Below are positions 3,082 through 54,510 of a stretch of DNA of 64,000 bases, piece after piece (position 1 is the stretch's first letter; the number at the start of each line of letters is the position of its first letter). Source of the stretch: Eledone cirrhosa (Eukaryota); contig OZ024763.1 of NCBI GenBank assembly GCA_964016885.1, forward strand, positions 27,776,001 through 27,840,000. Direction: 5' to 3'. The notes below the pieces were generated by a model, which did not search any database, had not been told where the DNA came from, and worked only from the letters and a program-made list of their open reading frames with translations. A program made the translations under genes and the position numbers.

Positions 3082-3482
3082 TGTAAATTATTTATTATGT
3101 ATTATATTCTTATTGTATATTAAGTATTATATATTATATTCATACTTTTCTATACCCAGACCTATATCATAAAAAAATCACAGCATAATTCCCTTAGCCC
3201 CCATAAAAAAAAAAAATGAAATGTTTGACCAAGATTTGAACACAGAGTTTCATGTTCGAAATGATTTATATAAAACTTTTGTTGTTTGTAATTTTACTTT
3301 CGATTTTTCTAAGTAAAATAATCTATTGGTTTCTAAATAAAAGTGTAGATTTCAATTCGAAGGCTGAAACAGTTCTAATCTTGTAGAAGCCATTTCTATA
3401 TTAAACATTTATATTCTGCTATGTATTCAGTACCTTGTTTACTATGGTTACCTCCGATTGAACCCGGGACGCACATAAACAC

Positions 3483-4003: not shown

Positions 4004-4210
4004 TTCTACCTGGAGTTGCGACCGATAGATAGTATTAGCTATTGGAAAGACCAACGGAAACATTGTTCCCTCGGTCCGATTTGACGAAAGTCGATCGTTC
4101 CTTAAAATATATATATCAAAATAAATTAACGGAGTCATAAATTCGCGTTGGTCTCTGTAATTTATGAGCTCAAAGGAAAAAGAATCCTGGGCTCTTCAAA
4201 TATAATATAT

Positions 4211-4747
4211 GGAAATGATAATATACGAGAGAGAGTGTGTTTATCAATGTACAGGGAAAAACCACCAGTGTATGCAATCTCTCGTGTATTATCTTTTCCC
4301 TCTCTCTATATATATATACACACTATAAGAATAAAGGATCAAAGCTTCAGTGTTGCATCATAACATATTTAATAACATATTACATATGTTTCACTATGGA
4401 TCAGCTCGTGGAACGACCTATTATTGACCGACACCTGACTCTGTAATCGAAAAATCATCAGATTTGGTTCCGTATGTGAGCTCATCTCCGATCCTGTGCG
4501 TGAAATTCTCCAGTCAGTAGATATATGCAGCGCATTCTTAGAACGTGGTAGTTTGCGTCCACTCATTGGTTTATTATCTCATCATATATATTTATGATGC
4601 AACACTGAAGCTTTGATCCTTTATTCTTATAGTGTATATATATATATATATAGAGAGAGAGAAAAGATAATACACGAGAGATTGCATACACTGGTGGTTT
4701 TGCCTGTACATTGATAAACACACTCTCTCTCGTATATTATCATTTCC
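4211..4747. mobile_element. Fold-back element, ~165-bp inverted arms with a degenerate HHR in the spacer
   Basis: Arms ~4211-4368 / 4585-4747. Minus strand reads CUGAUGA (4455-4461) ... GAAA-CAUAUG-UA^AUAUGUU. Confidence 0.7.
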
Positions 4748-4750
4748 AAG

Positions 4751-4937
4751 GGCGGTGAATTGGCAGTATCGGTAGAGGGTCGGACGCCATGCTTTGCAGC
4801 TTAGTTAGGTCCCTTTACGGTCTGAGTTCAAATCCCGCCGAGGTTGACTTTGCCTTTCATCCTTACGGGGTCGATACAATAAAGTACCAGTAATGCACTG
4901 GGATAATTGCTGGCCTCGTGCTAAAAGTAGAAACAAT
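4751..4937 (+). mobile_element. tRNA-derived SINE, full length
   Basis: Matches the 1509-1700 family. Confidence 0.88.
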
Positions 4938-4962
4938 CATATATATATATATATATATATAT

Positions 4963-5128
4963 ATAGGAACCAGTAAGACCCCGACAGCTGAGCTCAAGCC
5001 GTTTCGACGAAACGGCTTGAGCTCAGCTGTCGGGGTCTTACTGGTTCCTATTACATACTCTACTACCTCAAGTATTGAGTACTTTGGTGCGTTATGGTCC
5101 ACCTGGTTCCTTACCACATTTCCTTCGT

Positions 5129-5130
<2 letters not shown>
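4963..5130. repeat. Perfect 89-bp palindrome (4963-5051) of an HHR 3' half, plus tail
   Basis: Centre at 5007; each strand reads GAAAC-GGCU-UGAGCUC-AGCU-GUC (stem III plus GUC cleavage triplet). Confidence 0.8.
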
Positions 5131-5159: not shown

Positions 5160-5312
5160 ATAAATGGAGAATATATCACTATAGCATCATAATTTATTGA
5201 TGCTAAGTTATACTATGCCTTCTTCAGACAAAATACATTATTTGATGTATAAAAATGTTATGAACATAACTCTGTTGATTACATATTAACAAAGTCTATG
5301 ACTCATGGTTTT
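5158..5312 (-). mobile_element. Degenerate pLTR fragment related to the PLE
   Basis: tatgccttcttcagacaaaataca matches pLTR tatgccttcctcagacaaaataca; flanked by (TA)n. Confidence 0.55.
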
Positions 5313-5334: not shown

Positions 5335-5451
5335 GACAGGGAGCTGGACTGGTGTCATTAATTCCTTAAAGTTTTATTATACTATGAACGGGTTCAGTAT
5401 GAATCCGGTGACATCATCAGGTATTCCGAAATTTATCCAACAAAGGAATAT
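5335..5451 (-). mobile_element. Second copy of the 48050-48170 HHR element, HHR internally deleted
   Basis: Shares gggttcagtatgaatccggtgacatcatcaggtattc; the GAAA segment is lost between two TCA repeats. Confidence 0.65.
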
Positions 5452-5957
5452 AATTGTTTCTACTTTTGGCACAAGGCCAGCAATTACCCCCAGTACATTA
5501 CTGGTACTTTATTTTATCGACCCCTTAAGGATGAAAGGCAAAGTTAACCTCGGCGGGATTTGAACTCAGTCCGTAAAGGGACGTAACTGTGCTGCAAAGC
5601 ATGGCGTCCGACCCTCTACCGATACTGCCAATCCACCGCCCTGGTGGATTGGCAGTATCGGTAGAGGGTCGGACGCCATGCTTTCTAGCATAGTTACGTC
5701 CCTTTATGGTTTGAGTTCAAATCCTGCCGAGGTTAACTTTGCCTTTCATCCTTACGGGGTCGATACAATAAAGTACCAGTAATCTATTGGGTTATTGCTG
5801 GCTTTGTGCCTAACGTAGAAACAATTATATTCCTTTGTTGGATAAATTTTGGAATTTAATAAACAAAGGAATATAATTGTTTCTACTTTAGGCACAAGGC
5901 CAGCAAATACCCAGTGCATTACTGGTACTTTATTTTATCTACCCCGTAAGGATGAAA
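5452..5957. mobile_element. SINE cluster: 5452-5640 (-), 5643-5826 (+), 5877-5957 (-, truncated)
   Basis: Family match; the third copy is flanked by a duplicated aaaggaatataat. Confidence 0.88.
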
Positions 5958-21681: not shown

Positions 21682-21981
21682 CCCACACTTATATGCATAT
21701 GTACATATGCGAATGTGTATGTATTCCTCTATGCGTGGTAGGTCTATTCCTGTGTATAAGATGATGAATTTAAAAACCAAACCAAAAATAACACTTGTGT
21801 AATAATTCTTTTTCCATACCACCCGCTATTACTTTCTCACGCAACCGCAACATGGCGTCAAAAGAAAAGGACATAAACACTCCCTTCCTTCCTGCACAAA
21901 AATCCCCTTTTACAATCCATGTATCCCTCTTATCTATCTATATATATATATTATTATGTAATAAACAACATAAGGCAATTA

Positions 21982-22041
21982 TTCCATTTACCAGTGGTTT
22001 CTTAAAAGCAAAAGGTTTTGCTTTCAATCCTCAGAATGAAA
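21982..22041 (-). ncRNA. Type I hammerhead ribozyme (left arm of palindrome)
   Basis: UUUCAUU-CUGAGGA-UUGAAAGCAAAaccuUUUGCUUUUAA-GAAA-CCACUGG-UA^AAUGGAA. Confidence 0.82.
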
Positions 22042-22046
22042 AAAAT

Positions 22047-22106
22047 CCTGGTTCTGAGGATTGAAAGCAAAACCTTTTGCTTTTAAGAAACCACTGGTAA
22101 ATGGAA
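22047..22106 (+). ncRNA. Hammerhead ribozyme (right arm of palindrome; weaker stem I)
   Basis: Same core and stems II/III as 21982-22041 on the opposite strand; stem I is only partly paired. Confidence 0.65.
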
Positions 22107-22205
22107 TAATTGCCTTATGTTGTTTATTACATAATAATAATTAAACTCTGTTGCCTACATAGAGCACTGTTTTTTCCTGGACTTTTCCGACGGAATTACT
22201 TCATT

Positions 22206-22281
<76 letters not shown>

Positions 22282-22397
22282 CATATATACAATATATATA
22301 TATACATATATACAATTGTTTTCATACAATGACCAAATGAGGTTTATTTGTCAATACATTTCCTGGAAAGAAACGAAGCAGTTATTAATAAGAGTTT

Positions 22398-22566
22398 CGG
22401 TAGAGGGTCGGACGCCATGCTTCCCAGCATAGTTACGTTCCAGCATAGTTACGATCTGAGTTCAAATCCCGCCGAGGTTGACTTTGCCTTTCATCCTTAC
22501 GGGGTCGATAAATAAAGTACCAGTAATGCACTGGATAATTGCTGGCCTTGTGCCTAAAGTAGAAAC
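22398..22566 (+). mobile_element. 5'-truncated SINE with ~19-bp TSD
   Basis: cagttattaataagagttt on both sides. Confidence 0.88.
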
Positions 22567-22994
22567 AGTTATTAATAAGAGTTTAAATTAATACATGCAA
22601 GATTTCACCGCTCTAGTATGAATGCTTCATAATCAGTCTCTGAAATTTTCAGGCTAAGCTCGTAGTTACATGGTGGGGATTTCTTGTTCCTGGAAAGCAT
22701 GAAGGTTTAAAAAAAGGTGGGTTTTATGAAGTTTTTAGAACACTATGTAAGGGTTCATTATGCTATGACCCGCGTTTTTAGTCTCAAGTGCCAATGTATA
22801 ATATTCTCAGTAACCTGGTCGACTTAAAAAACAAATTTCTTGCATTTCGAGCATTGAGTAGATTCTTACAAAGCACCTGATCCGAATATTCCTTACACAC
22901 TATCTTCATGAAATGTTGGGATCAGGTGATCCGCTAATCGTTTATTTTGAACAAAAAATATTTTAGAAAAAAACTAAAATGATCAAATAATTAA

Positions 22995-25820: not shown

Positions 25821-25848
<28 letters not shown>

Positions 25849-25852
<4 letters not shown>

Positions 25853-26232
25853 AAAGTTATATTTAAATTGTTGGGTTACAACTAGTAAATATTTATAACT
25901 GATATAAAAGCACTCAACAAGTATTTGGAGTATATTTACGATATTAAATAAATGGAAACTATATTTATAAAACCATATTTATTTCATTATATATATTTCA
26001 GGGATATCATATTAACAATATGTTATGCCTTCCTCAGACAAAATACAATATAGACAGTTTTATAGATAAATAGATTTGACATACCGTTCAACATCGACTT
26101 GTATTTGAAAAAGTTGATTTGGCAGTGAAAAATTGTAAACAGGAAGAAAGAAAGAGAGAAAGAAGGAAAGAAAGAAAGAAAGAAAACGAAGAAAAAGAAG
26201 AAAAAGAAGAAATGCATGCAACAAAATACATG
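25849..26232 (-). repeat. 3' pseudo-LTR of the PLE
   Basis: Near-identical direct repeat of 29685-30064 (offset ~3836 bp). Confidence 0.92.
25980..26045 (-). ncRNA. Type I hammerhead ribozyme in the 3' pLTR
   Basis: UAUUUUGU-CUGAGGA-AGGCAUAACAUAUUguuAAUAUGAUAUCCCU-GAAA-UAUAUA-UA^AUGAAAUA; stems I and II pair, stem III is palindromic. Confidence 0.85.
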
Positions 26233-27423
26233 CAACAAAATAGAGAGATGGAAAGATAGATAAAGAGAAGAACTTCATGTAAAGAAACAGAGAGAGATAT
26301 ATATAGAGAGAGGAAATAGATAGAGATAGATATATATAGAGAAAAGTAGGTAGTTGAACATCCGTTGAATGAACGAATCGATGATACATTTATTTATTTA
26401 TTTATTTATTTAGCTCTAGTATTAATGTAAGGGAGATATATGTGGTTAGGAAAGAAACCAGCCGTTATATAGAGAGAAAAATGAAAAGTAACCAGACATA
26501 GGCGAGGCAGAATTTAAAAACCCTATGTTTTAATGTAGAAGTATTAGTACGTATAAAAACCAGGCACTATAATGTAAATATCAGTATTCCTAAATGAGAC
26601 ACGTATCCATAATGTGTGAAAAGTAATGATCTTATGTCTAGTTTTAAAAATTCATATGTTTATATGATAACTACAAACATCGATGTGAATTTACGTGATC
26701 AACTCTGCAAACCCCTATTTCACACGGAGAACATTCTCATTGTGCTATAAAAATTTAAGTATACATATATGTGTATATATACACATATATATAGAGTCTA
26801 TATTAATTTTAACAATACTATTCTTGTCTTTACTCTACATGACTATCTATCAAGCAGAAATAGAGAACAGATTTCAATATATTAATAAAAAATATCAGAA
26901 ACAAAAACAAACAAAAACAATAATAATAATAATAACCAAATAAATAAAATAGAAAACTAAAAAATATTACATATTAAAAATAAAAATATTAAAAATATAA
27001 AAAAAAAAAAAAAAAAAATATTAAAAAGTATTAAAATAATAAAAATAAAAACATAATAGAAACATAATATGCCACGCAAATCGACCACAAAGATCAACCC
27101 TTCAAAATTAATTGACAATATATTGCCAAGTTCATTATAAGCATCAGAGTCGAAAACAGATAAAGCTAAAAATTATTTACCAAATCGCGTCTAGGAGAAA
27201 TCATTTCAAAAAGTTTAGGATGCCCATTTGGTCTACATATGTTCTTATATTTAATATAGAAGTTTATCTAGTGTAACGTTTATTCGAAATATTTGGAGCA
27301 TCAACTTTTAGGGTAGTTTAATTTTTCATGAAGAATGTTTAAATAAAAATAAAAATAAAAAGAAGAATAAAAAGAAGAAATCGAAAGATTTATCGGCTAG
27401 TTTCCAAATAATTATAAATCAAA

Positions 27424-29637
27424 CTACATTTTAAATTTAAATTTATATTTAAAAGTTGGGTTCAATCTATGTTTGCAGCAACTGAATAAATTTGTCCGTA
27501 GATTAAGGGAATTTTTAGATTTTAGTATAAAGAATATCTCCTCCGCGCAGAGGTCACATGTCTCAGAGGATGAATTAAAAGGAATCCCTCTTGAGACTAT
27601 ATTCCAAGCCGTCGAATATCTAACGTTATCTTGCCTAAGTTGCCAGAGTACGCCTGATAGTGCTGTTGAAGATTTTTTGCTTGGATCTGTGAAAGAATTC
27701 TTGTGGTTATTATAGCGAAGTTTAAATTCCGTCGATGTGGAACCGACGTAGTTAAAAGAATTAGAGTCCGTTTTAACATTACAGTTGTATATTATATTTT
27801 TAACTAAGCAGTTGTTATTTAACGGACATTTAGATCTATCTCTACAGTTACATTTGTTAACTTGTATATTATTTATGCTATTATCGCTAGGTTTTAAGTT
27901 CCTATTATTTATTCTATTAATATTTTGTGCTAAATTTTTGGTGGATGAGTAGGTTAATTTTATAGTATGTCTATTGAAAATTGAGTGATACCTATGTGTT
28001 CTAGGGAAGCGATTATCAAGAGCTTTAAAAAATAGTTTAGCGATGTGGGTTTTAATGTTTAGTGAGAAAGGGGGTGCAGACCATATTATGTTCCTAGTTC
28101 TATTTCTTTTTTGGCTTTTGGAATTATTGTAATGCTTTCTATTATAGTTGCTAAGGTTGTGGCCGTAATTAAAATAGTTGTTATTTTGTTTAGTTTGTCT
28201 ATCATTATCTATGTATATAATCTTATCACTATATCCTGCTCTAGCTAACGCTTCATTGTAGTACTGGGCTTTTTCGTCGAAAATCTTTCTATTAGACGAG
28301 ATTCTAGAGATACGTTTTTGAACAGAGTTTACTATAGTGTTTTTGACAGATCTGGGGTGGTTAGAGTTAAAGCTGACATAGTTTAAGTTTTCATTCAACT
28401 TGTGAAAAGGATAGTGAAGACATGTGTTGAGATTTAATGTTATATCTAGGAAATTGACTATTCTATGGTTGTTCTCAATTTCTATTTTTAGATTAAAGTA
28501 ATTAAAAAATTGTGTAATTTGTTTTCTTTTTCTATTTAGTTCAGAGTTATTATTATCAATAAGTAAAAGCATGTCATCTCTATATAAACCTCCGGTAGTA
28601 CCGGGTATTTTCCTATGCAGCGAATTGATTAAAAATAAGCCCACAAGGTCAGTTACCTGAGCTGAGTCGGATGATCCCATAGTAATGTCAAAATTGCTAT
28701 CTCTATCTGCTCTGGTCCATAGTTGGTCATTAAATTCTATCAATGTTTTCCTAGCCGATAATATAATGTGCATTTCATTGCTAGTTAGGTCTGTATGTTT
28801 GAATGCGTAATTTAGTGCCTTATTTAGTAGATTAGGGGTAATAGAAGAATAATAGTTAGCAATATCAAGTTGAATAAACTTATTATTATTGTTATATTTA
28901 ATTTGCTTAAACCACTCAACAACCTCTCCAGTTCCCTTTCACAAGCTCAGGTTAGGTAAACAATCCAAGTTTTTAATTTGCTGTATCACCCTGTCAAGAA
29001 TGTTTTTGCTTAATTTGCCCAGGTCCGATTTTGATGGTGCGATCAATCTAACTGGCAAGTCATTTTCAAAATTCCTTTTGTGATCTTTCATATTGATCTT
29101 CGGTTTCCTGGGCACGAAAGGTTGTGTTCTGTTCTCAATTTCCAACTCATGCATTATACAAGATGCTTCGACATTCATTTTCTCAAGCTCGGCCTTATCT
29201 GCTACCTTGTACTTTTTCCTCAGTTCCTTCAGTATGAGGCCATTATACATGTCTTTCTGCACTCCATAGAGGTTGTTGGTCTTGTCAGATTTCACCAAGA
29301 TCTTCTCAGTTTTCTCTAAGCTCTCAATATTATCCTTAATGCCTTTCAGATATTCCTGGCCTTTGAAGTTTCTCTTGAATTTGACCCCTTGTATGATAGA
29401 AATTATATCGTTTTCAAAGTCAGATAAAAGTTTGTTAGGGGGTGGATTTCTTTTAGATTTGAAAACTTTGTTTAAGTCCGAGACATTTTCATTTATATTA
29501 GATTTATCAAAGTGGAATGCTCGCCACCTGATTCTCCTTATAAAAGAGTCAGATTTATCTATTAATTGTTTTATAAAGTCTTTGTTGCTAGGTAGAGGTA
29601 TGTCTTTTAGAGAGGAAGTAATCTTAAAGAATTCCAT
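27424..29637 (-). pseudogene. PLE reverse transcriptase / GIY-YIG endonuclease, 737 codons with one internal TGA at 28939-28941
   Basis: ORFs 28939-29637 and 27424-28773 are in the same frame and the gap reads open (*KGTGEVVEWFKQ...FIQLDIANYYSSI). RT motifs: FIQLDIANYY, FDITMGSSDS, GLYRDD, NFLDITLN. Linker CNCRDRSKC (CxCx5C). Endonuclease motifs: IIYNC..NYVGST, FKLRYNNH, CDLCAEE, CCKH. Confidence 0.92.
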
Positions 29638-29684
29638 TTTTTCAGTTATAATATAAAGCGCTCAACAGTATTGGGGCAAGATAC

Positions 29685-30061
29685 ATGGAAAGTTATATTT
29701 AAATTGTTGGGTTACAACTAGTAAATATTTATAACTGATATAAAAGCACTCAACAAGTATTTGGAGTATATTTACGATATTAAATAAATGGAAACTATAT
29801 TTATAAAACCATATTTATTTCATTATATATATTTCAGGGATATCATATTAACAATATGTTATGCCTTCCTCAGACAAAATACAATATAGACAGTTTTATA
29901 GATAAATAGATTTGACATACCGTTCAACATCGACTTGTATTTGAAAAAGTTGATTTGGCAGTGAAAAATTGTAAACAGAAAGAAAGAAAGAGAGAAAGAA
30001 GGAAAGAAAGGAAGAAAACGAAGAAAAAGAAGAAAAAGAAGAAATGCATGCAACAAAATAC

Positions 30062-30064
<3 letters not shown>
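29685..30064 (-). repeat. 5' pseudo-LTR of the PLE
   Basis: Near-identical to 25849-26232; ends ~50 bp upstream of the ORF ATG. Confidence 0.92.
29816..29881 (-). ncRNA. Type I hammerhead ribozyme in the 5' pLTR
   Basis: Identical to 25980-26045. Confidence 0.85.
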
Positions 30065-30233
<169 letters not shown>

Positions 30234-30587
30234 TAGTATATCTACTAACATATGCGTACAGATGTACGCTAATGCTAGCAAATACATAAGTTATGTCATA
30301 GTACCTAGGTGGTTCAATGCAGGAGGATGCAGAACAATAATATAAAAGACGTAAAATAAGAAAATTTAAAAAAAATTTTTAAAAATTAACTTACTAAAAT
30401 TAGTTGGAGTGAAAATTTTAGTAAGTGTAATTTTTTAAATTTTTTTTAAATTTTCTTATTTTACGTCTTTTATATATATATATATATATAATGTGTGTGT
30501 GTGTGTGTAAAAGGTAAAGAGAAATAACAACACAATTGGTACAGTATATAGAAGGGATATATTAGCTTAATTCTTGATATATCAGCA

Positions 30588-31122: not shown

Positions 31123-31436
31123 TCGTTTCTGAATTTGTTTAGCAAGATTCTTTATCTGAAAACGTGTGTTGAAACCGATATTGTTATACTTTGGGAGGGT
31201 CATGTTGCCAATAAGAAACACACGCACCAGTTGCATTCACTTCAATTTATTATAATAAATTTATAAATTTTAAGAATTTATAAATTTCCGGTTGGTTGAT
31301 TCCACAACCAGATGGTTGTTTATATATTGTCAAAGTTCTTTCGTCACACATTCTGTGACCTCTTCAGTGACTGGGGATTCTTTTCTTTGTTTTCGTGCCT
31401 CTCCTTTGTTCTGTCCTACGCCATCTTGTTTCTGTG
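31123..31436 (-). mobile_element. Second copy of the ~320-bp element, HHR at 31329-31371
   Basis: GUCA-CUGAAGA-gGUCACAgaaugUGUGAC-GAAA-GAAC-UU-UGAC. Confidence 0.75.
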
Positions 31437-39133: not shown

Positions 39134-39264
39134 CTGTTACTACTACTACAGCTACTACTACCACCTGTACTAGTGTTACTAATACTACCACTACTGTAAC
39201 TACTACTACTACTACAGCTACTACTACCACCTGTACTAGTGTTACTAATACTACCACTACTGTA

Positions 39265-39296
<32 letters not shown>

Positions 39297-42200
39297 AGCT
39301 ACTACTACCACCTGTACTAGTGTTACTAATACTACCACTACTACTACAGGCTACTACTACCACCTGTACTAGTGTTACTAATACTACCACTACTGTAACT
39401 ACTACTACTACTACAGCTACTACTACCACCTGTACTAGTGTTACTAATACTACCACTACTGTAACTACTACTACTACTACAGCTACTACTACCACCTGTA
39501 CTAGTGTTACTAATACTACCACTACTGTAACTACTACTACTACTACTACTACTACTACAGCTACTACTACCACCTGTACTAGTGTTACTAATACTACACC
39601 ACTACTGTAACTACTACTACTACTACAGCTACTACTACAGCTACTACGACCACCTGTACTAGTGTTACTAATACTACCACTACTGTAACTACTACTACTA
39701 CTACTACTACTACTCTACTACAGCTACTACTACCACCTGTACTAGTGTTACTAATACTACCACTACTGTAACTACTACTACTACTACTACTACTACTACA
39801 GCTACTACTACCACCTGTACTAGTGTTACTAATACTACCACTACTGTAACTACTACTACTACTACAGCTACTACTACCACCTGTACTAGTGTTACTAATA
39901 CTACCACTACTGTAACTACTACTACTACTACTACAGCTACTACTACCACCTGTACTAGTGTTACTAATACTACCACTACTGTAACTACTACTACTACTAC
40001 TACAGCTACTACTACCACCTGTACTAGTGTTACTAATACTACCACTACTGTAACTACTACTCTACTACTACAGCTACTACTACCACCTGTACTAGTGTTA
40101 CTAATACTACCACTACTGTAACTACTACTACAGCTACTACTACCACCTGTACTAGTGTTACTAATACTACCACTACTGTAACTCTACTACTACAGCTACT
40201 ACTACCACCTGTACTAGTGTTACTAATACTACCACTACTGTAACTACTACTACTACTACAGCTACTACTACCACCTGTACTAGTGTTACTAATACTACCA
40301 CTACTGTAACTACTACTACTACTACTACAGCTACTACTACCACCAGTACTAGTGTTACTAATACTACCACTACTGTTACTACTACTACAGCTACTACAGC
40401 TACTACTACCACCAGTACTAGTGTTACTAATACTACCACTACTGTAACTACTACAACTACTACTACAGCTACTACTACCACCTGTACTAGTGTTACTAAT
40501 ACTACCACTACTGTTACTACTACTACAGCTACTACTACCACCTGTACTAGTGTTACTAATACTACCACTACTGTAACTACTACTACTACTACAGCTACTA
40601 CTACCACCTGTACTAGTGTTACTAATACTACCACTACTGTAACTACTACTACTACTACAGCTACTACTACCACCAGTACTAGTGTTACTAATACTACCAC
40701 TACTGTAACTACTACTACTACTACTACAGCTACTACTACCACCTGTACTAGTGTTACTAATACTACCACTACTGTAACTACTACTACTACTACTACAGCT
40801 ACTACTACCACCTGTACTAGTGTTACTAATACTACCACTACTGTAACTACTACTACTACTACTACAGCTACTACTACCACCAGTACTAGTGTTACTAATA
40901 CTACCACTACTGTAACTACTACTACTACTACTACAGCTACTACTACCACCAGTACTAGTGTTACTAATACTACCACTACTGTAACTACTACTACTACTAC
41001 TACTACAGCTACTACTACCACCTGTACTAGTGTTACTAATACTACCACTACTGTAACTACTACTACTACTACGACAGCTACTACTACCACCTGTACTAGT
41101 GTTACTAATACTACCACTACTGTAATTACTACTACTACTACGACAGCTACTACTACCACCAGTACTAGTGTTACTAATACTACCACTACTGTAACTACTA
41201 CTACTACTACTACTACCACCAGTACTAGTGTTACTAATACTACCACTACTGTAACTACTACTACTACTACTACTACCACCAGTACTAGTGTTACTAATAC
41301 TACCACTACTGGAACTACTACTACTACTACTACTACTACAGCTACTACTACCACCAGTACTAGTGTTACTAATACTACCACTACTGGAACTACTACTACT
41401 ACTACTACTACCACCAGTACTAGTGTTACTAATACTACCACTACTGGAACTACTACTACTACTACTACTACTACAGCTACTACTACCACCAGTACTAGTG
41501 TTACTAATACTACCACTACTGTAACTACTACTACTACTACTACTACCACCAGTACTAGTGTTACTAATACTACCACTACTGGAACTACTACTACTACTAC
41601 TACTACTACAGCTACTACTACCACCAGTACTAGTGTTACTAATACTACCACTACTGTAACTACTACTACTACTACTACTACCACCAGTACTAGTGTTACT
41701 AATACTACCACTACTGTAACTACTACTACAGCTACTACTACCACCTGTACTAGTGTTACTAATACTACCACTACTGTAACTACTACTACTACTACTACAG
41801 CTACCACCAGTACTAGTGTTACTAATACTACCACTACTGTAACTACTACTACTACTACAGCTACTACTACCACCAGTACTAGTGTTACTAATACTACCAC
41901 TACTGTAACTACTACTACTACTACTACAGCTACTACTACCACCAGTACTAGTGTTACTAATACTACCACTACTGTAACTACTACTACTACTACTACAGCT
42001 ACTACTACCACCAGTACTAGTGTTACTAATACTACCACTACTGTAACTACTACTACTACTACTACAGCTACTACTACCACCAGTACTAGTGTTACTAATA
42101 CTACCACTACTGTAACTACTACTACTACTACAGCTACTACTACCACCTGTACTAGTGTTACTAATACTACCACTACTGTAACTACTACTACTACTACGAC

Positions 42201-42730
42201 AGCTACTACTACCACCTGTACTAGTGTTACTAATACTACCACTACTGTAACTACTACTACAGCTACTACTACCACCAGTACTAGTGTTACTAATACTACC
42301 ACTACTGTAACTACTACTACTACTACTACAGCTACTACTACCACCAGTACTAGTGTTACTAATACTACCACTACTGGAACTACTACTACTACTACTACTA
42401 CTACAGCTACTACTACCACCAGTACTAGTGTTACTAATACTACCACTACTGTAACTACTACTACTACTACTACCACCAGTACTAGTGTTACTAATACTAC
42501 CACTACTGTAACTACTACTACTACTACTACCACCAGTACTAGTGTTACTAATACTACCACTACTGTAACTACTACTACAGCTACTACTACCACCTGTACT
42601 AGTGTTACTAATACTACCACTACTGTAACTACTACTACTACTACGACAGCTACTACTACCACCTGTACTAGTGTTACTAATACTACCACTACTGTAACTA
42701 CTTCTACTACTACTACTACTACTACTACCA
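39134..42730. repeat. 3.6-kb (CTA)n-derived minisatellite, ~57-66-bp unit
   Basis: Unit cagctactactaccacc(t/a)gtactagtgttactaatactaccactactg(t/g)aa(cta)n. Confidence 0.95.
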
Positions 42731-42795
42731 CTCGATAGATATATACTGTATATATATAGAGGGATAAGTGTGTGTATGTATACATATATATATAT

Positions 42796-46072: not shown

Positions 46073-46118
46073 ACACATATCTATATATATAAGCACGCAA
46101 ACACACACATATATATAT

Positions 46119-46275
46119 ATATTTAATATAGAACTGGCTTCTACAGGGCTAGAACTGTTTCATTCGGGAGATCTCATCAGGGGTTCCTGATGATTTCTCC
46201 CGAATGAAACAGTTCTAGTCCTGTAGAAGCCATTTCTATATTAAATATTTATACTTTGCTATGTATTGAGTACCT
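46119..46275. mobile_element. Palindromic HHR element (HHR cores on both strands)
   Basis: Inverted arms 46119-46181 / 46186-46248. Plus strand reads GGUUC-CUGAUGA-UUUCucccGAAU-GAAA-CAGuucuagucCUG-UA^GAAGCC. A truncated relative lies at ~3364-3436. Confidence 0.75.
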
Positions 46276-46301
46276 TACATACTGTGGTTACACACATACA
46301 G

Positions 46302-46384
<83 letters not shown>

Positions 46385-46385
46385 G

Positions 46386-46783
46386 AGGTTATATTTCATT
46401 TGTTTGGATTCAACAAGCTTAAACATTTTTATAACTGATATAAAGCACTCAACAAATTAGTGGAGTAAATACACAATATATTAATAAATGGAAACTATAT
46501 TTATAATATTATACATATTTCAAGGACAACCAAGGCAAATTATTGTGCGCTTTCATCAGATAAAATCCAGATTTGTTTTATAAATAAATATTGACATACC
46601 CGGAAAAAAGACAACCTTAACGGAAGCTCTAACCGTTAAGGTTGTCTTTTTTCCGGGTATGTCAATATTTATTTGTAAAACAAATCTGTATTTTATCTGA
46701 TGAAAGCGCACAATAATTTGCCTTGGTTGTCCTTGAAATATGTATATTATTATAAATATAGTTTCCATTTATTAATATATTGT
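46386..46783. mobile_element. Palindromic solo pLTR related to the full-length PLE, HHR core in both arms
   Basis: ~150-bp arms 46473-46623 / 46633-46783. CTGATGA at 46697-46703 with GAAA at 46735-46738, mirrored at 46553-46559. Colinear similarity to pLTR 25851-26085. Confidence 0.8.
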
Positions 46784-46856
46784 ATGTATATATATATATA
46801 TATGAGGGTGTATGTATTTGCTTACGCATACATACATTATATATACAAACAACACT

Positions 46857-47899: not shown

Positions 47900-48307
47900 G
47901 GTTTGTTGGTTCACAACTGGATAGAACTGGTCATTCCGTATGGTCAACCTCGTTGTAATATTATGGAGAGCACTCAACGTAATGCAACTCACCCGTCTTT
48001 GTTTGTGTAGTTGGTGGTGCGAGTACGGAGTTTATTATTAGAAAAATAACAGGAGGTTGCACTGGTGTAATTCCTTAAAAGGTTTATTATACTTTGATCA
48101 TTTCAATGACCGGGTTCAGTATGAATCCGGTGACATCATCAGGTATTCGAAATATAACAAAGAAATATAATAGACAAAATCCATGGTGCTAAAAATCAGA
48201 GACATGAGGGCGCCCGAACATTTAGAAGCTACTAAATGTTCGGTCGCCCTCATGTCTCTGATTTTCAGCCCTATGGATTTTGTCTATTATATTCCTTTGT
48301 TATATTA
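47900..48307 (-). mobile_element. HHR-bearing PLE derivative with terminal palindrome
   Basis: HHR at 48089-48146 (AUAC-CUGAUGA..GAAA-UGAUCA-AA-GUAU; U16.1 mutated). Inverted repeat ~48152-48225 / 48232-48306. Second copy at ~5335-5450. Confidence 0.65.
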
Positions 48308-48382
48308 CATATACATATATATAGGTATGTTATAAATACAGATATATGTATGTATGTATGTATGTATGTATATTTTTATATG

Positions 48383-54066: not shown

Positions 54067-54153
54067 CCAAATAAAATAGTTAATTTATATATATAATAAA
54101 TAATATAATATATACTATGTATAAATAAATATTATATATTCTTTATTGTAAAT

Positions 54154-54510
54154 AATTGTGTCTACTTTTGGCACAAGGCCAGCAATTATCCCAGTGTGTT
54201 ACCGGTACTTTATTTTATCGACCCCGTAAGGATGAAAGGCAGAGCTAACCTCGGCGGGATTTGAACTCAGACTGTAAAGGGCCGTAATTCTATGCTGCAA
54301 AATATGGCGTCAGACCATAATAAAATAATAATTGTTTCTACTTTTAGCACAAATCCAGCAATTAATTACCCCTGTGTATTACTGGTGCTTTATTTTATAG
54401 ACCCCTTAAGGATGAAAGGCAAAGTTAACGTCGGCGGGATTTGAACTCAGACCTTAAAGGGCCGTAACTCTATGCTACAAAGCATGGCGTCCGACCCTCT
54501 ACCGATACTG
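54154..54510 (-). mobile_element. Two tandem SINE copies
   Basis: Family match (54154-54316, 54330-54510). Confidence 0.85.

Follow-up and report, generated by a model that had tools for sequence, protein, structure and literature searches.

The palindrome described here raises two questions: how two perfectly inverted arms, each with a hammerhead core, came to stand head to head in a chromosome, and whether RNA from such a locus would act as a ribozyme or merely fold into a hairpin. It lies within a 64,000-nt stretch of the Eledone cirrhosa genome (hereafter, the window), in an AT-rich, microsatellite-laden background.

Geometry of the palindrome and its hammerhead cores

The inverted arms are 88 bp each with no mismatch, one base more at each outer end than the ~87 bp given in the initial annotation, and the 15-nt spacer between them was as described there. 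The mirror symmetry ends at 88 bp, whereas the whole palindromic unit is 257 bp long (21949-22205); the span first given, 21950-22200, took in the palindrome but overlooked the one-sided run that continues to 22205. The inverted repeat has a folding z of -24, and none of 200 shuffles was equally stable. The breakpoint between the arms is at ~22052, with microhomology of 1-2 nt. No target-site duplication could be read at the palindrome, the flanks on both sides being microsatellite. The positions of the features are collected in Table 1.

Table 1. Parts of the palindrome and related features, in window coordinates
Feature	Position	Strand	Basis or remark
(TA)n run, left junction, likely target site	21939-21948		Sequence; passage from TA run to arm also in other family contigs
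Left arm, native orientation, ending at inner recurring 3' terminus, tail-less	21949-22036	minus	Arm alignment; contig depth step
Predicted complete type I hammerhead, 7-bp stem I	21982-22041	minus	CUGAGGA 22034-22028, 11-bp stem II, 3-bp palindromic helix III
15-nt apex, native upstream sequence including 5' strand of stem I	22037-22051	minus	Loose contig ends
Right arm, 5'-truncated copy	22052-22139	plus	Begins 2 nt ahead of CUGAGGA; core intact, native stem I gone
One-sided tail, 66 bp, to outer recurring 3' terminus	22140-22205	plus	Contigs leaving into (TA)n; TWGAGYRC at 22160
(CA)n(TA)n microsatellite, right junction	22206-22300		Sequence
Near full-length Hydra-type Penelope-like element (PLE), different family	25845-30113	minus	RT + GIY-YIG-type ORF 27424-29661; direct pLTRs
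TWGAGYRC in 3' ends	5075, 22160, 25917, 29753, 43783, 46266, 46452, 47977		

Each arm contains a CUGAGGA box, an 11-bp stem II, GAAA, a 3-bp helix III and a GUA site, and both cores point outward (minus strand, C3 at 22034 and A17 at 21989; plus strand, C3 at 22054 and A17 at 22099), in agreement with the initial annotation. The catalytic boxes CUGAnGA, GAAA and UH are thus present on both strands. The minus strand alone has the full stem I that had been claimed for it, with seven contiguous pairs (UA UA AU CG UG UA UA); on the plus strand, three pairs are followed by a G.G mismatch. Cleavage of the minus hammerhead is predicted after A17 at 21989. Pair 10.1-11.1 is U-A directly after A9, not the conserved G-C, and there is no unpaired base after A9. 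The calculated energy of helix III was +0.4 kcal/mol as a monomer and -8.2 kcal/mol as a self-dimer, so this short, palindromic helix looks dimer-dependent.

A strict hammerhead descriptor matched two positions in the window (minus 22034 and minus 31367) and none in 100 local shuffles; it rejected the plus core and also overlooked the pLTR hammerheads at 26037 and 29873, which were accepted by eye. Searches against Rfam found no hammerhead family in the window at the gathering score, and none among the 45 matches obtained for 21700-22400 at E<=10. These matches were mostly to miRNA-type hairpin models, generic and below their cut-offs, and a miRNA precursor was rejected. Further hammerhead-like minus cores lie near TA runs at 5227, 5420, 30625, 31367, 31642, 43909 and 48142; those at 5420 and 48142 form one family (76%), and only the one at 31367 matched the strict descriptor.

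By blastn, no second copy of the arm was found in the window, and the tandem arrays of the window contained no units of the palindrome family. One of these repeats is a minisatellite at 39138-42731 (~54 copies of 66-69-bp units), whose ~900-codon open frames on both strands are probably non-coding. A 190-bp SINE-like repeat, putatively an octopus SINE, has more than 10 copies, some of them in tandem (e.g. 1313-1710, 4749-4942, 22393-22574 and 54139-54510).

Hairpin and ribozyme folds of the RNA

The initial annotation proposed that transcription in either direction would give an RNA able to fold either as a long hairpin or as a ribozyme. Folding of both strands did not bear this out. The hairpin of the 257-nt unit was calculated at -149.5 kcal/mol (minus) and -152.5 kcal/mol (plus), and it was favored over the forced hammerhead fold by 74 and 81 kcal/mol, respectively. 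The penalty was already 69 (minus) and 76 (plus) kcal/mol at the point in transcription where stem I is completed. With both cores facing outward, a polymerase coming from either side meets the antisense arm first. Switching between hairpin and ribozyme is unlikely because of this order, the energy gap and the apparent dimer dependence of helix III, and a conformational switch was rejected on both strands, during transcription as well. According to these predictions the long hairpin suppresses both ribozymes, and a core would be freed only when transcription starts at the apex. Minimal PLE hammerheads are described as uncut in the monomeric state in vitro (PMC4209133), which fits the helix III energies here.

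In Drosophila, inverted copies of Penelope yield siRNA (PMC3681739). By analogy, RNA from the palindrome, if transcribed, is a plausible substrate for siRNA production or ADAR.

Family copies and the origin of the inverted arms

To place the palindrome among its relatives, we compared it with contigs of four of seven public runs that match part of the stretch, at 85% likeness. None of the seven is on record as RNA. Run X1 is perhaps from the same sample as the window and hence not independent, and run X7, of unspecified kind, was not interpreted as expression. Matching contigs numbered 2590 among 17.1 million records in X1, 156 among 0.76 million in X7, 5 among 18.7 million in X4 and 56 among 8.3 million in X6. 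In X1, the summed depth, which is not a copy number, was 2 in the unique sequence to the left and reached 631,432 on the arm; on the arms and tail together it was several hundred thousand. The palindrome therefore belongs to a very abundant family present in at least three organisms. Exact-pattern scans of metagenome contigs, prokaryotic genomes and viral contigs gave no loci.

The ends of these contigs define the orientation of the family. Among the 20 of 129 rows of loose contig ends that were listed, at least 21 contigs in the four runs go on past 22044, 22052 or 22053 with upstream sequence that is not the mirror of the arm. Since native contigs continue in this way, the spacer is the native upstream (5') flank of the family and the native hammerhead is that of the minus strand; the right arm represents a truncated copy starting 2 nt before its core. 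At the other side, at least 17 contigs (14 in X1 and 3 in X6) exit at 22204 or 22205 into (TA)n, and several contig pieces enter the arm at ~21949 from TA runs. The family thus has two fixed 3' termini beside (TA)n, 66 bp apart (21949/22139 and 22204/22205), and the tail between them is one-sided in the palindrome.

Eleven other head-to-head joints were found (10 in X1 and 1 in X4), all with different breakpoints. None retained the CUGAGGA box, and in two of them the antisense arm is fused directly to the tail. The sides of these joints are only 20-27 nt at 85% likeness and were flagged as error-prone. Within the left arm, five variants reached at least 5%: none in the core, two outside the ribozyme, two in loop II and one in stem I. 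The last, at 21984, changes G.U to A-U and occurs in all four runs.

We consider it very probable that the palindrome consists of two head-to-head, 5'-truncated copies of the family end that bears the hammerhead, flanked by microsatellites and extended on one side by the 66-bp tail; a PLE RT/endonuclease likely produced it as a dead-end insertion. The geometry, the native spacer, the two recurring termini and the variable sister joints are the observed part of this reading. The initial annotation had proposed a head-to-head double insertion; the head-to-head origin stands, as a retro-insertion, and in place of two separate insertions there was probably one event with a fold-back. In such an event, a PLE enzyme would nick both strands of the (TA)n target, and one end would prime cDNA at the inner start, 21949, which would extend for ~104 nt across the hammerhead as far as 22052. 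The cDNA would halt at ~22052, fold back on the 1-2 nt of microhomology and copy itself, giving an identical right arm. The other end would prime at the outer start, 22205, provide the tail and anneal to the fold-back copy. The two cores would persist only since the cDNA had passed the ribozyme before folding, and read-through RNA would contain an 88-bp duplex, possibly a substrate for siRNA production or ADAR, without self-cleavage.

Parts of this course have published counterparts. An inverted 5'-truncated copy with a one-sided tail is called typical of PLEs (PMC8557442), head-to-head palindromes have been explained by self-priming on the antisense strand (PMC3846280), and a PLE enzyme is reported to nick and extend both target strands, with two RT starts as the limits of the tail (PMC11167929). 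Opposite-strand hammerhead pairs 100-700 bp apart were noted in 2014 (PMC4209133). Against PLE membership, the sense unit scored 16 with the pLTR of the neighboring PLE, where the shuffle mean was 20 (p=0.98), and of five termini tested it gave a marginal alignment to one only (p=0.048). No parent ORF (RT + GIY-YIG) linked to the family was found in the window.

Other origins have to be set against this one. Without a fold-back, PLE insertion could also have joined two independent cDNAs by microhomology, made from two RNAs, one per nicked strand. Nicking and extension of both strands by PAc and the dimer predicted for it (PMC11167929) would suit such a course, as would the two sister joints in which the antisense arm runs straight into the tail. 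The arms, however, are identical at 88 of 88 positions, in a family in which 453 of 2590 X1 contigs are at least 99% alike, and the chance that a copy made independently agrees at all five polymorphic sites is ~0.2. This identity favors self-copying weakly, because a single source locus could supply both RNAs, and we regard two joined cDNAs as unlikely. A MITE or DNA transposon was rejected because the termini of the arms are of the retro type and only one side has a tail.

The perfect arms invite two further explanations, to both of which we give very little credence. One is an assembly or library fold-back artefact. Zero mismatches would suit it, and none of the 29 contig pieces listed, of 2822, bridges the exact 22052 junction. 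In a fold-back chimera the mirror symmetry would extend into the flank, yet it stops at 88 bp, the two sides end at different recurring family termini with different flanks, and older palindromes of like layout have 4-8 arm mismatches. The other is a self-propagating ambisense unit, with a fixed apex and a ribozyme per strand, that moves whole. Here the intact cores count in its favor along with the perfect arms; an exact recurrence could also have escaped notice, since a contig with the same joint would display none and the listing covered 29 of 2822 pieces, and the window has two copies of another hairpin family (5-88 and 4956-5057). The two copies of that family, however, have different apexes, the plus core of the palindrome is without stem I, and the hairpin blocks both folds. 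The initial annotation had suggested that a recurring 15-nt spacer would mark a mobile unit, but the spacer belongs to the native upstream region, and the 11 sister joints are all different. It is accordingly most improbable that a small non-coding unit is re-mobilized whole by PLE enzymes from either strand, with one core per polarity freed by apex-started transcription and read-through dsRNA left for editing or silencing; if it were, the re-mobilized palindrome would be a chromosomal ambisense hammerhead element.

Relation to PLEs, viroid-like RNAs and other palindromes

The neighboring PLE (Table 1) looks young. Its direct pLTRs are identical at 386 of 390 positions, with a hammerhead core in each, and its ORF has one in-frame stop (28939-28941). 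An inverted, tail-less piece begins at ~30063, about at the predicted hammerhead cut site. The motifs RW-basic (RWR, not RWK), DKT, CxCX5C, CxxC and CxH, a C-terminal EN and the (TA)n target agree with those of the Hydra clade, to which the element is assigned on sequence features. The ORF has 109 homologues at ~27-45% identity, almost all unannotated and two of them from Argonauta. Pfam searches with both ORF pieces gave no family, one of five homologues gave one weak RVT_1 match, and a PDB search for the protein gave no matches.

Other tailed palindromes are present in the window. At 46114-46291, a second hammerhead palindrome has 68-bp arms (within 46114-46253) with five mismatches, a 4-nt apex and a tail of ~38 bp; both its cores are without upstream stem I, and a partial sister copy lies at 3365-3451. 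A third, at 46383-46792, has ~158-bp arms (46466-46792) with a core on each, a nested hairpin at the apex and a ~83-bp tail on the left, and is 72% like the pLTR of the neighboring PLE. In the GC-rich hairpin family (5-88 and 4956-5130) no hammerhead core was seen, and the copy at 4956-5130 has a 73-bp one-sided tail with the shared TWGAGYRC motif. Further local inverted repeats lie at 5423-5855, 48143-48314, 4210-4748 and 30331-30475; in one of them, two SINE-like copies meet head to head at a perfect apex. The palindrome at 21949-22205 did not align with the neighboring PLE or with the other tailed palindromes, and a MAFFT alignment of 10 termini, which misplaced it, was left out of homology reasoning.

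The motif TWGAGYRC was picked after looking, and its placement in tails, rather than its count, stands out: the window has 12 matches against 12.7 expected, which is not above chance, and 8 of the 12 sit in 3' ends of unalignable PLE-type families. The best shared tail 8-mer of this type beat 60 of 60 shuffles for five tails and likewise for four, by one mismatch. Located 12-20 nt into the tail and common to otherwise unalignable families, the box may, as a tentative and rather doubtful suggestion, serve for recognition and fix where the two priming starts lie. We rank this suggestion as likelier than the ambisense-element reading.

Compared with published insertion units of EN+ PLEs, the palindrome shares the head-to-head inverted copy, the palindromic junction and the tail at one end (PMC8557442; Pen2a_Av in PMC3846280), as well as the hammerhead in the repeat, the (TA)n target and the lack of a readable target-site duplication (PMC8557442, PMC3846280). 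It differs from the units described there in having no ORF, no direct pLTR pair and no parent element found, and its tail is 66 bp rather than 30-40 bp (PMC8557442, PMC3846280). Cervera and de la Pena (2014, PMC4209133) described minimal type I hammerheads in metazoan PLEs, with which the cores of the palindrome share a long helix II and a helix III that is short, palindromic and fit for dimer formation; close opposite-strand pairs and many dispersed truncated copies are also common to both. Stem I is 7 bp here and 4-5 bp in those hammerheads, which often have G10.1-C11.1 and an unpaired base after A9, in contrast to the U-A pair without an unpaired base; the cores are 20 bp apart, and those of PLE pairs 100-700 bp (PMC4209133). 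With Hydra clade PLEs the palindrome shares (TA)n targeting and hammerheads (PMC8557442), and with the neighboring PLE the tail motif, but its sequence cannot be aligned to that element, which leaves the clade unproven. Animal non-LTR retrozymes are likewise non-coding, carry type I hammerheads and are proposed PLE derivatives; they are defined by tandem head-to-tail units (bioRxiv 10.64898/2026.07.22.740005), whereas the copies in the palindrome are inverted, so that each strand has a single core.

Viroids and viroid-like circular RNAs carry hammerheads in both polarities, as distinct sequences in a circular replicon. The palindrome also has a core on each strand, but its cores are mirror copies in chromosomal DNA that came from head-to-head retro-insertion, so the likeness is superficial, as initially supposed. 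Complete ribozymes were not found in both polarities: the plus core is without native stem I, and the hairpin blocks both in folding.

For Octopus vulgaris, Penelope families with recent activity have been reported, and the main text of that article, as far as it is considered here, mentions neither ribozymes nor palindromes (PMC13282606). A literature search at the level of main texts gave no description of the family or of the tail motif, and repeat libraries or supplements may contain it. The palindrome is likely an ordinary stub among many of known layout, in a family for which no description was found. A single stub matters little; the joints, sharp termini and tail motif of the family suit a genome-scale test of inverted insertion by PLEs, in which the choice between fold-back and two cDNAs is a step called undefined in the literature. 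If transcribed, perfect hairpins like this one could feed A-to-I editing.
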